From Octopus vulgaris (Eukaryota), in NCBI GenBank assembly GCA_951406725.2, contig OX597838.1:24366001-24430000 (forward strand): a DNA stretch of 64,000 nucleotides, given 5' to 3'. The position numbers and the translations under genes are program-made. Numbering within the stretch: the stretch's first letter is position 1; every line of letters begins with the position of its first letter. Positions 6,425-16,700 of this stretch are shown here, one piece after another. The notes below the pieces were generated by a model, which was given only the letters and a program-made list of their open reading frames with translations, did not search any database and had not been told where the DNA came from.

Positions 6425-9400
6425 ATGTATGTATGTGGCTGTGGAGTGGCTGTGTGGTAAGTAGCTTGCTAACCAACCACATGGTTCCAGGTTCAGTCCC
6501 ACTGCGTGGCATCTTGGGCAAGTGTCTTCTGCTATAGCCCCGGGCCGACCAATGCCTTTGTGAGTGGATTTGGTAGACGGAAACTGAAAGAAGCCTGTCG
6601 TATATATGTATATATATATAAGTGTGTGTGTGTATATGTTTGTGTGTCTGTGTTTGTTCCCCTAGCATTGCTGGTGTGTTTACGTCCCCGTCACTTAGCG
6701 GTTTGGCAAAAGAGACCGATAGAATAAGTACTGGGCTTACAAAGAATAAATTCCAGGGTCGATTTGCTCGACTAAAGGCGGTGCTCCAGCATGGCCGCAG
6801 TCAAATGACTGAAACAAGTAAAAGAGTATGTATGTATGTATGTATGTAAAATTGTGTGGTTAAGAATTTTGCTTCCCAACCACATAGTTCCAGGTTCAGT
6901 CTCACTACATGGCTCCTCGTGCAGGGGTCTTCTACTATAATCCCAGGTCAAGAACGGATTTGGTAGACAGAATCTGAATGTTGCATTGCGCGTGTGTGTG
7001 TGTGTGTGCATACAAGGCAGTACTGAAAACACAAACAAGGCAGTACTGAAAAGTTCCTGGCTTTAAGGGTATTGTGAAAGGCCTAGTTGGAGGCCCAACC
7101 TTCTAGGTTCTTTTACAGGGTTTAGAAAATTTGACAACCTTACTGCAGAAAGCATATGAATCTCAATAAAATCCCAATCCTCCTGTATTTTCTTTTATCC
7201 TAAGCCAGGAACTTTTTCTGCACACCCTTGTGTGTGTGTGTGTGTGTGTGTGTGATTATTCAGCTTATTTCAAGATTTCTTACCAATAAAGAAAGGGCTA
7301 ATTTCTAATTCATTTGAATTTCATCAACATCAACAGGGTAAGCAGCTGTGGCAGAAAACACATGGCCATGGTCATGGGGCTGGAATGTCTTTGATCATAG
7401 GACCTGCTCAATCCCATATGACATTGGGGGTGGGGGTGGGGTTAAACAGCAGCAACAGCAGCCGTTCAAGAATTTGGACCTGGAGATCTCCATTTCCAGC
7501 AACTTCAAGGGCCACCTCCCAGTGGTGTCGGGCATCAACAAAGAGCCCTCTCGACCAAAGTTGTTTTTTTTTTCCCCAAGGTCTGGGGTCTCAATCCCAT
7601 ACGACATTGGGGGTGCAAGGGTTAAACAGCAGCAACAACAGCCGTTCAAGAATTTGGACCTGGAGATCTCCATTTCCAGTGACTTCAAGGGCCACCTCCC
7701 AGTGGTGTCGGGCATCAACAAAGAGCCCTCGACCAAAGTTTGTTTTTTTTTCCCCAAGGTCTGGGGTCTCAATCCCATATGACATTGGGGGTGGGAGGGT
7801 TAAACAGCAGCAACAACAGCCGTTCAAGAATTTGGACCTGGAGATCTATATTTCCAGTGACTTCGAGGGCCACCTCCCAGTGGTGTCGGGCATCAACAAA
7901 GAGCCCTCGACCAAAGTTTTTTTTTTTCCCCAAGGTCTGGGGTCTCCCACCCCTAAGCCCTAGACCATCACCTAATCACCCTTACCAGTATTGTTGCTTA
8001 ACAACAACAACAAAAACAACAACATGCACCAACATGTACTAACATATGCCAACATGCACATCTTTTCCAAAATTTTTTTTTTCACTCTGGCCATTGCCTG
8101 TTGACACATAATGTTCTAAGCAACATAGAGTTAACGAAGTACCAATTAGACACAATCCAAAAGAATCAAAAGAGAAACTCACATCTGCGGGAAAGGGTCA
8201 TACTTCTCAGTCTCTGTAGTGAAAATACAAACAAAAGGTACATTAATTTAGGGATAAAAAAAAAAGGGGGTAAAGACTCGTTTTGGTCACGAATGACCAT
8301 GGGATTGCACTTAGAAAGTTCCCCTCTGAGGCACAATTATAGGCAAGGTTGTTTATGGAAGACCAGCAGTTGCCCATGTATACCAGCCTCCCCTCTCCAC
8401 ACCACCAGTGTTATCCAAAGGAAAGACAAAGGGGCCAATATAGCTTGGCGCCAGTGACATTGCACCTCATTTCTACAGCTGAGTGAACTGGAGCAACGTG
8501 AAATAAAGTGTCTTGCTCAAGAACACAACACAGTCTGGTCCTGGAATCAAATTCACAACTTCATGATTGTAAGCCCAACACCCTAACCACTGAACTATGC
8601 ACCTTCACATAGCTATGCACCTTCACATACCTATGTGCCTTCACATAGCTATCTGCCTTTACATAGCTATTCACCTTCACATACCTATGTGACTTTACAT
8701 AGCGATGCACCTTCACAAAGCTATATGCCTTTACATAACTATGCACCTTCACATAGCTATATGCCTTCACATAGCTATTTGCCTTTACATAACTATGCAC
8801 CTTCACATAGCTATGCGCCTTCACACAGCTATATGCCTTCACATAGTTATGCACCTTCACATACCTATGTGCTTTCACATAGCTATATGCTTTCACATAG
8901 CTATGCATCTTCACATATCTATGTGCCTTTACAAAGCTATGCACCATCACATAGCTATGTGCCTTCACATTTAGGGATATCATTAACTAAAACTTGAGTA
9001 ATGTGTATAGCATTCTTGAAATATTATTATAGAACAAAGAATATCGATTAGATGTGAGAAAAGGGGTTGTGTGCAGATATGTCCGTATTGTTAAGAAGTT
9101 GTTTATGTAACTACCATGTAGTTGTGGGTCTAATTCCACTACATAGCACATTGAACAAATGTCCATTCAACCATAAATTCACCTTGATTAATTCCCTGTG
9201 GGTAAAACTTAATTTGCTTGATGGAAATTCTGTGGAAGCTCATCTCAGCTACATTATCTTCTATGAATACTTCGAATCATACACCATCTGCAAGTGGCAC
9301 AATATCTTTGTCGGTTTTTTTTTTATGTAAACTTTCTGCTTGTGAGAAACTTGTAAAATTAGTTTTCATTCACCGGGGTTTGATTGACACAAGGTAACCC

Positions 9401-10859: not shown

Positions 10860-13025
10860 CTATCTCTATCTAATCCACTTCACTTTAGAATACTTTCTTT
10901 CTCTCTCTTCCACTTCTCTCAGCACAGCCACTGCTTTCCCTTTACAGCCTGACAGAAATATAGTGTGCATAAGATATTTGAGGGCATATTTACGTTTATA
11001 AAAAAACAGATATACAATAACAGATAATAACTTTATTTATCAAAGAATGCTATGAAGATAAAAATAAACCCCTAAAACCATGACAGTTGCAGGAAATTTT
11101 GTATGCATAACACTTGGAACTTCAGAAGGGTCTGCACATAACCATCTGTCATTTCTTCTCTTAACTATTTGATCTTGGTTGAAGTTTTTCTCATTTAAGA
11201 AAAGCCAAATCAAATCTTCTTCTGCTGGATTTTTCAGTTTGTTTAAGAGCCTTTTAGATCTGATGTAATGATTTACTTTTGCTTTTTCGGACAAAGTGAC
11301 CTTTCTATACCTTTACTACCCACATGGGGCTAAACACAGAGAGGACAAACAAGGACAGACAAACGGATTAAGTCGATTACATTGATCCCAGTGCTTAACT
11401 GGTACTTAATTTATCGACCCCGAAAGGATGAAAGGCAAAGTCGACCTCGGTGGAATTTGAATTCAGAACATAACAGCAGACGAAATACGGCTACGCATTT
11501 CGCCCGGTGTGCTTACATTTCTGCCAGCTTGCCGCCTGACAAAGTGACCATTCCTCACCATATAAGACTTATACCTGATGTCTTTGTGAACAACATTTCT
11601 GACTGTTCCTTCTGACACATGGAAATCTTTTGCAAATGACCTGTTGGACTTTCTGGGACTGTAATCAATGGTCTGTTGAACTTGCTGGATAAATTCAAGT
11701 GTTCTGATGATTTCAGAGCATTTAGAATGCTTTTTATGCTTTGATACTGGTGATACGTTTCCATCTTCAGTCTTTAGCTCCTTACAAACTTTGTAGACGA
11801 AAGATCTGGCAACTTTTAAAAATTGAGATATTTCTAAATGACTATGCTCAGCCTTTATAAACACAGTAACAGCATGCCTCTTCATCTCTTGAGTAAGCTG
11901 AGGACCTGCTACTATTATTTTCTGAAACAATGATTATACAAAGCGAGCAAAAAATGCAGCAATGACCCCAAAAACGGTATGTCCTCAAATACCTTACGCA
12001 CACTGTATATAATGCAACAAACAAACAAAAAAACATGTGACTTGGTATTTTTGTATATTATGTTACTAGAAAAAAACACCTTTAGTGATAGAATAAAAAC
12101 AGTATGTCCAGTTAATGTCCCCAAAATCTGATATTTTTAATGAAGCGCCTCCCTTATACCTCTTTCTCTCTCTCATCAATAATATCTAGCCATGATCCAC
12201 CAAATTCAGATACTTAAAAGGGAGATTTGGCTATTATTTCCAGCTAGCCATGTAACTAAATATCGACTCCCTAAGTGGTTTCTGTGTTCTCTAGTGTAAG
12301 GTCAAAATGCTCAGTGTGAACAAGACGGGTTTTGCTTTACCTCATACTGCTGACCCTTTGAGTAAGCCATTGCTGGTGCGGTGGGAAATAGGTAAACTCT
12401 CATTTTCTCCTTTGCTCGTTCATATTTTTCCTTGGAATGGAAATTCTCGATACAACTTTCAAAGCTGAGTATCAGTTGTGAAGCAGATTCTATGAAATGA
12501 CAGCTTTCCTGAAATAGAATTTCAAAAAAAAATTTTTTTTTAATTAAACAAAAATTGGAATTGCTTACAGATTTGGATGTTGGGTGAAAACTTAGAAGCA
12601 TGGGCATAATTCTGTAATCAAAGGTTGGGTTGCATAGGAAAGATGTTTAATTGAAGATCTGTATTACTATCCATTGGTCTTAGAGTATTCAAAGATGATG
12701 CAAAACATTGTAGAACAAAATAAGTTTAGAGGTATATGCACATGTATGTACACATGCATACACACACACACACACACACATACACACATACATACATACA
12801 TACGTACATACATACATACATACGTACATACATACGTACATACATACATACATTCTTTTATTCTTTCACCTACTTTGACTGCAGCCATGCTGGAGCACTA
12901 TCTTGAAGGGTTCAAGTTCCAGGACTTATTTCTTAAGCCTAGTACTTATTCTCTCGGTCTCTTTTGCCAAACTGATATATATATATATATATATATGTAC
13001 ATATCTATCTATCTATCTATCTATC

Positions 13026-13078
<53 letters not shown>

Positions 13079-13722
13079 ATATAATCAAAATAGCAACAAG
13101 GATATCCAGAGGTAATGCAGTACGATCGTTTCATGCGACTCCATTTAATTGAACAATGCAAACATTACATCAATTTAAAATGTAGAGCAATCTTCAGCTG
13201 CACTAAATTCTATATTTTTATGCAAGTTTTAGAACCCAAAGTCTTAGAATAGTTCTAGTGCACATGTTCTCAACCAGGATCCATATAAGCCCTTGTGGGG
13301 GTGGGGTCTATCTGTAATAAATTGGTTTTATTTCTGCAATACACAAAATATTTTAGCAATTTTTTAATACAATTCCTGATAATATTTAATTATAAAACAT
13401 AAAATAGATTTTTTTTAAACAACAAAGGGCTAGATGCATCCATCTGAGTAAAATAGGTGTCAAAGGGGTTTCTACGGGCAAAAAACTGGTTGAGAAACAC
13501 TGTTCTAGTGGGACTTAGAGAAATTCCGTTCAGATATGGAATGGAATGAAATGGGGGCAATATTTTCCAAAGAGGACTTACTTTGCTGCATTGATTCATA
13601 ATGGTCTCTTCATCTCCAAATATGAAAGGGCTATCGGAAGACAGGTGGATGCTGTAGCCTAAAGGGCTGGTCATCATGAACTTCAATACATGGCGTCTGA
13701 AATAATAATAATAATAATAATG

Positions 13723-13754
<32 letters not shown>

Positions 13755-16700
13755 TAATAATAATAATATATGGCTCAACTGACTGAAACAAGTAAGGAAA
13801 AAAAACAGAAAAAATGGACAGAGAAAATTTACCTACCCAGGTGGTAGTGTTAGTGTCACAGCACGGGTAGCAGTGGTTCGTAGCATTAGTATCGGTTGAC
13901 CAATGACCAGACTCTTCCAAGAATAAGGTTCGACAACGAGTTGACCAGGCTGAAGACTTGGAATTGAACCACTTTCTGGATGGCTGGAATCTAAGAGATT
14001 GGCAAAAGATTAGAGAAATTCATTTCTCACCATCAATGTCATTGCCACCACCACCACCACCACTACTGTCACCACAGCAACACACCATTATCACTACCAC
14101 CATTACCACCACTGCCATCAGCTTCATCACCATCACCGTTATCACCACCAACATTACCATCACCCCCCATCACCACCACCACCACCATTGCCATCAGCAC
14201 AATCATCAACCGCACCACAACCCTCACAACTACAACTACCATCACTACCACCATCACCACCATAGCCACCACCACCATCACCACCATCACCACCACCACT
14301 ACCACCCTCACCACCATAGCCACCACCACCACCACCACTACCATCACCACTACAACCACCACCACTACCACCATCACTATCACCATCACCATCATCAAAA
14401 ATCATCATCCTTCTGAAATTCCCCACCCTGTTCACATTTTTTATTGCACCGGATGCTGGGCCTCACTGAGGAGATGATAAAGGACCAGGAGTCATGGTGA
14501 TCTGCTGTACTTGAGAAAACACATCAAGCTAAGTAAAATCGCGCTATCCCCCATACACACAGGCTTCTTCTTTGCAGGCACTGGTGCCACATAAAAAGCA
14601 CTTTCATGTGCTGGTGCCACATGAAAGGGCACTCATGCTAATGCTGTGTAAACGCATCTGTGCTAGTGGCACATAAAAGACACCCAGCATACTTTGTATA
14701 GCAGTTCATATTAGGAAGAGCATCCAATTTCTTTATTAGCCACAAGGGCCCAAATATAGAGGGGGACAATACAGCCTGATTGGGATCAGATACACAATGA
14801 TTATATGACTTTTAAAATTTTACAAAATATAATGAAATCGAATGAAATCGAATGAGATACAACAAGGACGAAATACAAACATGAGATGAAGCAGAGAGAT
14901 GGCTTATGCTCCGACCCCACGAGCCCCATTCTCCTACTGAAACTTTTGTATGCAGACTTATGACATGTTCACGAGGAATCTTTCATTCCCAGCACCCTCG
15001 CAACATGCAACCATCTTTCTTTGAACATCGAGCCATAGAAACCATATTCCCAGCAGACAATTGGGAGTCTGGACAGCTCCCCCAGCTGACCAGCCCTTGT
15101 TAAACGGTCCAACCCATGCCAGCATGGAAAACAGACGTTAAACAATGATGATGGTGAACAAACACCATCGAGAACATCAGCTGCCTCAACTTCCCCAGTC
15201 ATGGAGGTGCCAGTAAAGGCCAGAAGCACTGACTCTTCCACCAGATGGTGCTGTTAGAGAGAAACGGCACCAGCCCAAAGCAATGTGGAATATTGGGCAA
15301 GCAGGTTTGTCTTGGATGGTTATTTCATGAAATGAACTCACCCCTTGAAAGAAAGCTCCCGAGAACAATCTAGTTGATAGAGCATGAACCATGGCTGAGC
15401 TTCACTGAAGGGAGCCCTAGCTTTTGTAACAGACAAAAATATAGTCAAATGAATGGGTCGGATAAAATCCACTACCCTAAGGGGCTAAACATTAATAAGA
15501 GCAGAAACGACAACAAAGTTTATACATATACACCCATAAAAACTCTACAGAGTCTTTAGTCATTATGTAGACCCATATGTAGACCCTTGTAAAGATACTA
15601 CATAAATCTCACACAGAGACCCTTACAGTTACTATAGTGTTTAAATAGAATCTGTCCGGTCCTTATTCACACCTATATTTCCCCTACGTTGTTTCCATAT
15701 AGCCCTGAAATAGATCCTTATAGTCACTATGTAGTCTCTGCAGAGACCCCAAACAACCAGGGTCATCTTCAGAGCATTATTAGCCCCAAGGCTAATAATG
15801 CTACTCTGGGCCCTATAGCATGTATTTATTGACAGGAAGCCACATCATAGATAAATTAGAATTGGGGCCCCTGAACAAGGTTGTTTGTGAAAGACCAGCA
15901 GTCTCCCTACTTCACCAGTGTGTCCATGCTTTGAAACAGCACTATGCACAGCCCTTATACACACTAATATAGTCCACATATGGTCACTGTATTGCCATCA
16001 AATATATCCTTACAGTCACTAAATAATCTCTGTACAGACCCCACACAGATCTTATACAGTTCTATATAGTCCCCACATAGACAATATATAGTCCTCAAAG
16101 GTGCCCTTACAGTCGTTATATACTCTCTACATTAACTACAATACAGTTCTTACACATACTCTCTTCATAATTTAAAACAGCCCCTACACAGACGCATCAT
16201 GAAACTGAAGAGGTAAAAATAAAAGATGCTATTTTTTTATCAGTTGATACTCACTTTCATATGAGTTTGGACTGAGACGGGCTTCTTCTTTTAATTTAAC
16301 GACATTGTCTTTGGGATTGGAACATTCGTTCCAACGGGATAATGATGAATAGCACACTACCAGCTCTGAGTTCACCAAACCATCTAAAACTGAAAAGAAG
16401 CTTAAGGAAAATTCCACTTGAATCTCACATTAGCATTAATATTTTTTTTTTTCTACTCTAGGTACAAGGTCCAAAATTTTGGAGGAGGGGCTCCAGTTAA
16501 TTAGATTGTCACCAGTATGCAACTGGTACTTAATTTATTGATCCAAAAGGATGGAAGGTACAGTCGACCTCGGTGGAATTTGAACTCAGAATGTAAAGAC
16601 AGACAAAATACCTATTTCTTTACTACCCACAAGGGGCTAAACATAGAGGGGACAAACAAGGACAGACATAGGTATTAAGTCGATTGCACCACAGATATAC

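Follow-up and report, generated by a model that had tools for sequence, protein, structure and literature searches.

The window, a stretch of 64,000 nucleotides of Octopus vulgaris DNA, carries part of an androglobin gene. The exon at 12341-12508 was 100% identical to the O. vulgaris androglobin-like protein P0001, and the 37 coding exons of P0001 were mapped to the minus strand. This mapping confirmed that a hammerhead ribozyme motif described in the first-pass annotation lies in the sense strand of intron 22 (the number counts coding exons only, UTR exons of androglobin being left out). The relevant part of the gene is as follows.

13582..13695, minus strand: androglobin coding exon 22, encoding residues 810-847, where Pfam Androglobin_II ends
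12509..13581, minus strand: androglobin coding intron 22 (1,073 nt, GT..AG from 13581 to 12509, phase 0)
12341..12508, minus strand: androglobin coding exon 23, encoding residues 848-903, where the globin part likely starts

Pfam Androglobin_II spans residues 701-841 of P0001 and takes in most of exon 22, implying that intron 22 lies near the start of the globin part and not within it. An earlier placement of the motif between two globin-domain exons is thus half right: it suits exon 23, likely the start of the globin part, and not exon 22, which is mostly Androglobin_II. The globin boundary was also sought in solved structures; none was obtained. A 242-bp element lies in the same intron just upstream of the ribozyme (window 13261-13502). 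Its terminal inverted repeats are imperfect, its 8-bp target duplication (13253-13260 and 13503-13510) is exact, it is repetitive by contig depth, and it is likely a hAT-type MITE. Intron 25 holds a ~140-bp tandem repeat with long open frames (window 7256-7975), and intron 23 holds broken frames on the plus strand (window 11040-11933), which we take to resemble a Tc1/mariner-type transposase.

Our own descriptor and reading of the sequence placed a type I hammerhead motif on the minus strand from 13205 to 13113, with all core bases intact. Its parts are listed below in 5′ to 3′ order.

13113..13205, minus strand: whole hammerhead motif, type I, GUA triplet, predicted cut 13121/13120
13205-13198, minus strand: stem I 5′ arm
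13197-13191, minus strand: CUGAAGA core
13190 / 13133, minus strand: U·U pair closing stem II
13134..13189, minus strand: stem II, 56 nt (a proximal stem of 3 bp, then internal loops and a hairpin at the distal end)
13132-13130, minus strand: GAA core
13122..13129, minus strand: stem III palindrome ACGAUCGU (2 bp plus a 4-nt loop in a monomer, 8 bp between two copies)
13121, minus strand: A17
13120-13113, minus strand: stem I 3′ arm

The layout, core, GUA triplet, predicted cut position and self-complementary stem III were all present as first described. The motif contains C3-U4-G5-A6-N7-G8-A9, G12-A13-A14, A15.1-U16.1 and H17, and has three helices, open at stem I; the canonical G10.1-C11.1 pair at the base of stem II is absent and U·U stands in its place. 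It was the sole match of our type I descriptor on both strands of the 64-kb window. Among 200 dinucleotide shuffles, two gave a match with stem I of at least 8 and stem III of at least 3, and none gave a match with an 8-nt self-paired stem III. A chance origin of the motif is ruled out. The covariance-model check that had been proposed came back empty, as the Rfam models gave no hammerhead match over the window at the gathering score or over 12500-13800 at E<=5, and the remaining Rfam matches in the window were microsatellite artefacts. The hammerhead was probably missed because of its long 56-nt stem II.

The genome-wide copy count called for earlier gave 1,553 exact matches of a 20-nt piece from the 3′ half of the motif, compared with none for the reversed control. 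A 141-bp query returned 1,765 genome candidates, and the 40 that were scored all matched at 94-100%. The results showed that the insertion in the androglobin intron is an end fragment of a repetitive element, ~140 bp including an inverted 5′ piece, with the following structure.

13203..13224, plus strand: inverted junction piece of 22 nt from the same element, adjoining the 5′ truncation
13083..13202, minus strand: direct Penelope-like fragment, consisting of the hammerhead and a 38-nt tail running into a TA/CA microsatellite
12967..13082, no strand: TA/CA/GATA microsatellite, the insertion site

The inverted piece was recognized in other copies, where query positions 7-29 matched at 100% on the opposite strand. 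The three outermost bases of the stem I 5′ arm (13205-13203) come from this junction piece. The 8-bp stem I reported earlier is accordingly correct for the window copy and does not hold as a family trait: the family stem I is 6 bp, and among 118 copies the 8-bp 5′ arm was found in 2. The window copy is fully intact, as are 43 of the 118 sampled copies, and showed no difference from its subfamily majority over 111 columns, which marks it as a young insertion rather than something old and conserved; the median divergence from the majority was 3.6% among 87 sampled copies, in a sample that favours close copies. The 3′ ends fell into two groups, with 43 of 84 copies stopping 30-49 nt past the cut and 38 of 84 at 110-150 nt. 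A preference for (TA)n targets was evident, 72 of 84 copies running into microsatellite, and the 5′ ends were ragged, many with an inverted partner.

Walking upstream from the hammerhead led through ~2.3 kb of non-coding sequence (25% GC) to an endonuclease, an asparagine-rich linker and a reverse transcriptase (RT). One strand carries RT, linker, endonuclease and hammerhead in this order in L094, in its near-duplicate L135 and in L133, so that an ORF with RT followed by a GIY-YIG endonuclease was found on the hammerhead strand, broken in every copy seen. The front end of L132 reads inverted partial copy, hammerhead, ~190 nt, start codon, RT, and this order indicates that the 'tails' seen in short copies correspond to the element's 5′ UTR. 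A terminal repeat with the hammerhead before the ORF, 5′ truncation, inverted 5′ copies and a 30-40-nt tail were thus all found. In the ~2.3-kb 3′ UTR no second ORF was detected, the longest open frame in a 179-match pile-up being 74 codons. By our own estimate from L132, L094 and the 3′ UTR pile-up, the element is ~5.4 kb long.

The endonuclease was identified from motifs read by eye (CxCx5C, VVY..YFG, R, CxxC, E, N, CxH), as no Pfam match to it was obtained; the Pfam RVT_1 match to the RT was weak (E 8e-4) and below the cut-off. Comparison by eye with the Hydra alignment of Penelope-like elements (PLEs) revealed DKT, LKDHK, F-D-x-x-MG-S, GLYRDD and CxCx5C, with DKT seen in L132 and RWK degenerate (RVRWI in L094). 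In L093, L094, L095 and L098, the CxCx5C linker is combined with CxxC and CxH around E and N, without CCHH. These motifs, on whose reading by eye the assignment rests, suggest that the parent element likely belongs to the Hydra clade, and the Penelope-like origin put forward in the first-pass annotation is borne out by the linkage of the hammerhead to an RT and endonuclease with motifs of this clade. The Naiad clade was considered when the endonuclease appeared 2.7 kb upstream of the ribozyme, and was rejected on finding the RT further upstream of the endonuclease and not C-terminal to it; Naiad elements have the endonuclease N-terminal to the RT, DKA, and no canonical hammerhead, according to the sections of PMC8557442 covered.

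With the RT core as query, a protein search retrieved three fragments of 68-76% identity in O. bimaculoides and O. sinensis, and a search with the N-terminal RT piece retrieved none among 691 candidates. The three fragments (P0002-P0004) are annotated as uncharacterised proteins or as a kinase, labels that likely stem from their asparagine-rich tails. Several further features were observed in the loci. At ~1850-1880 of L132, a few bases before the start codon, a pyrimidine tract and CAG resemble a 3′ splice site; Penelope carries an intron in its 5′ UTR (PMC8557442, in part). The 3′ UTR contains old internal duplications, ~880 nt apart with 67-74% identity (L092 3600-6200, L098 4139-5471). In L093, L098 and L132, another retroelement is inserted into the AAT repeat that codes for the asparagine-rich linker. 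L094 also carries, at ~2510-2745, the inverted 3′ end of a different Penelope-like family, found again at L055 and L070; this family has its own short hammerhead-like motif with a palindromic stem III, and L070 carries its GIY-YIG endonuclease frame.

Short copies dominate the family, with 267 candidates 1 kb upstream in a first look compared with 1,765 at the hammerhead, and PLE terminal repeats are the reported source of retrozymes (bioRxiv 10.64898/2026.07.22.740005, in the part available). Both would suit a non-autonomous retrozyme or SINE-like unit that moves in the form of a small circular RNA. However, the tandem monomer unit of non-LTR retrozymes was absent from the loci examined, and the ragged 5′ ends continue into a coding element. 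A long-standing intronic ribozyme adapted to the host, of the kind seen in amniotes and CPEB3, is likewise at odds with a window copy that equals its subfamily majority and is hence young. We consider both explanations highly unlikely. The hammerhead in androglobin has an ordinary origin and is not a gene-specific ribozyme.

The ribozyme was compared across copies. CUGANGA was intact in 105 of 118 copies, with position 7 varying in 5. In the 41 of the 118 copies that were aligned, 93.6% (92-94%) of cells were paired, compared with 26-50% in slid controls. The first stem II pair was U-A in 85 of 118 copies and A-U in 21, a compensatory change that counts as one evolutionary event. A second subfamily, sampled through its 5′ half alone (59 matches, of which 25 loci were used), has the A-U form of this pair, and its altered stem III still self-pairs, via G·U. 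The majorities of the two subfamilies differed at 16 of 126 columns, none of them among the 27 positions of the core, the U·U pair and stem I (hypergeometric P 0.016, for a position set chosen after the fact). These data suggest that the hammerhead fold was kept while the element was mobile.

This variation also bears on another possibility: a core spoiled by the U·U closing pair and by a stem II that is long and loose might leave the family hammerhead without catalytic activity, dimers included, in which case it would persist only within the terminal repeat of the element. The missing G10.1-C11.1 pair is called highly conserved in the part of PMC4209133 covered, the unconstrained fold of the motif is not a hammerhead and is no better than shuffles (z -0.56), and ribozyme mutants of the anole PLE still inserted in vitro, cleavage being dispensable there (PMC11167929, in part), all of which would fit a dead ribozyme. 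The absence of subfamily differences from the 27 positions, the swap of the first stem II pair and the preserved self-pairing of stem III argue the other way. So does the U·U pair itself, since 14 of the 25 Hydra families in File S2 of PMC8557442, a source covered in part, show the CUGANGAU..UGAA U·U layout, indicating that it is a known variant and the norm of the clade. Pointing out a U-U closing mismatch was therefore correct as to its presence and mistaken in treating it as a defect of the window copy, for it occurs in 112 of 118 copies. We consider a dead family hammerhead quite unlikely.

The folding model was used to predict activity. The active monomer fold lay 2.5 kcal/mol above the minimum, and its predicted share of the ensemble was ~1e-3 at 37 C and 6e-5 at 15 C, lower still with the upstream flank containing the inverted piece. 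Nearest-neighbour models leave Mg2+ and tertiary contacts out of account and disfavour three-way junctions, so this share may be an underestimate. Two copies, in contrast, were predicted by unconstrained co-folding to form a double hammerhead at 25 and 37 C (-48.4 vs 2 x -19.3), in agreement with the earlier pointer to dimers; stem II was predicted to misfold at 15 and 20 C, with stems I and III still formed, and the predicted dimer Kd was 0.3-4 micromolar. In the part of PMC4209133 covered, metazoan PLE hammerheads were inactive as monomers and weak as dimers, and the anole PLE hammerhead cut only when the element's own protein was present (PMC11167929, in part).

Among transcripts, contigs joining exons 22 and 23 with exactly 1,073 nt removed were found in five of eight runs (X1, X3, X8, X10 and X18), which come from five studies; the other three look like DNA. 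These contigs are compatible with partial cleavage, and the source animals may lack the insertion, whose site was bridged by none of the contigs listed. In the RNA-type runs, sequence of the element family reached a summed contig depth, a poor measure, far above that of the androglobin exons.

It had been suggested at first that the motif cuts the ADGB pre-mRNA co-transcriptionally. Cutting at a meaningful rate, which would lower or tune androglobin mRNA, might proceed in the monomer with the aid of Mg2+ and RNA chaperones, or by pairing in trans with other transcribed copies. The core is intact and in sense orientation, the junction lengthens stem I to 8 bp, ~680 nt of intron are left to transcribe between the ribozyme and the 3′ splice site, and the abundance of family sequence in RNA-type runs, as far as summed depth can tell, would provide partners. 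However, the predicted monomer share is 1e-3 or less, the predicted dimer Kd is far above the level of one pre-mRNA, the spliced exon 22-23 product was present in the five runs, and no reads of the anole element started or ended at the cut site in the part of PMC11167929 covered. The motif is moreover one of at least 1,553 dispersed copies, and no second hammerhead copy was found in the 104 kb spanning every androglobin coding exon; an apparent second match at 43 kb proved to be this copy again under different coordinates and was rejected. Taken together, these results make meaningful cutting of the androglobin pre-mRNA unlikely, and the suggestion could not be sustained. That host-intron copies are cut in trans by element RNA, or with the help of the element's protein, is very unlikely; if true, it would tie cleavage of host introns to transposon activity, for example in the germ line.

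We hold with good confidence that the motif derives from a high-copy PLE, likely of the Hydra clade, of which it is the terminal hammerhead; it is present as a young, short, 5′-truncated insertion and is predicted to be a near-silent passenger. The element endonuclease may have nicked the TA-rich tract in intron 22, whereupon reverse transcription would have started inside the element RNA ~38 nt beyond the ribozyme and halted after ~120 nt, adding the 22-nt inverted piece; internal RT initiation is the published explanation for the tails of PLE copies (PMC11167929, in part). A complete element would carry the ribozyme in both terminal repeats, the upstream one ~190 nt before the start codon, and the two copies in a transcript would dimerize via the palindromic stem III, and their cleavage would trim a longer transcript down to the element RNA. 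The androglobin pre-mRNA holds one copy, and the intron would likely be removed by splicing uncut. The hammerhead is predicted to be near-silent because a second copy or the element's protein would be needed; with a lone copy predicted to need a partner, little effect on androglobin is likely, and the insertion is likely a neutral passenger. Two points against near-silence are that the window copy is fully intact and that stem III truly has 2 bp and a 4-nt loop, exceeding the minimal motifs in the part of PMC4209133 covered.

For androglobin, the insertion is thus probably of little consequence. What appears to be new is an octopus family, likely of the Hydra clade, with a 56-nt stem II missed by the Rfam models and a ~2.3-kb 3′ UTR. 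Neither this family nor its long stem II was found in the literature searched, and Repbase and the repeat library of the 2026 O. vulgaris repeat paper may contain the family; the main text of that paper mentions neither Hydra nor ribozymes. The U·U form of the hammerhead, common in the Hydra clade, seems unassayed in the literature covered. The more than 1,500 dispersed copies would allow a direct test, at population level, of the harm that PLE hammerheads may do to host genes: if the copies cut, intact sense-oriented ones should be depleted in introns.

Amniote intronic ribozymes and CPEB3 are single, conserved loci, whereas the octopus motif is one young insertion among the more than 1,500 members of a repeat. 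They share with it a self-cleaving-type motif in the sense strand of an intron (PMC6765202, in part). Poseidon of Anolis (Frangieh et al. 2024, PMC11167929, in part) resembles the octopus element in having the hammerhead at the junction of terminal repeat and ORF, two preferred copy ends downstream of the cut, and AT-rich targets. It belongs to another clade, and its ORF overlaps the ribozyme, whereas the octopus start codon lies ~190 nt past the cut.

The minimal PLE hammerheads described by Cervera and de la Pena (2014, PMC4209133, in part) are likewise of type I with a palindromic stem III, have an extra base after A9 and a predicted dimer, and occur mostly as single dispersed copies of truncated elements, so that the published link between PLEs and hammerheads already includes lone dispersed copies. 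The octopus motif differs from them in its stem III helix and loop, where the minimal motifs have none, in lacking G10.1-C11.1, and in its much longer stem II.

The closest resemblance is to the Hydra-clade PLEs of Craig et al. (2021, PMC8557442), as far as the covered parts of that source go. The octopus element differs from them in its stem II of 56 nt, compared with published stems of 3-7 bp and loops of 3-10 nt, in its length of ~5.4 kb, compared with generally <3 kb, and in its asparagine-rich linker and ~2.3-kb 3′ UTR. Two short motifs of the octopus hammerhead were absent from the covered portion of the supplement, and Hydra-1_Obim (2,507 bp) has a different hammerhead, showing that the octopus family is not identical to it. 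Both the clade and the octopus element nevertheless have an RT followed by a C-terminal GIY-YIG-type endonuclease, share DKT, the CxCx5C linker, CxxC/CxH and (TA)n targets, and carry the hammerhead close to the 3′ end, and Penelope-5_HM matches the octopus hammerhead in its core and in the first stem II bases with U·U.
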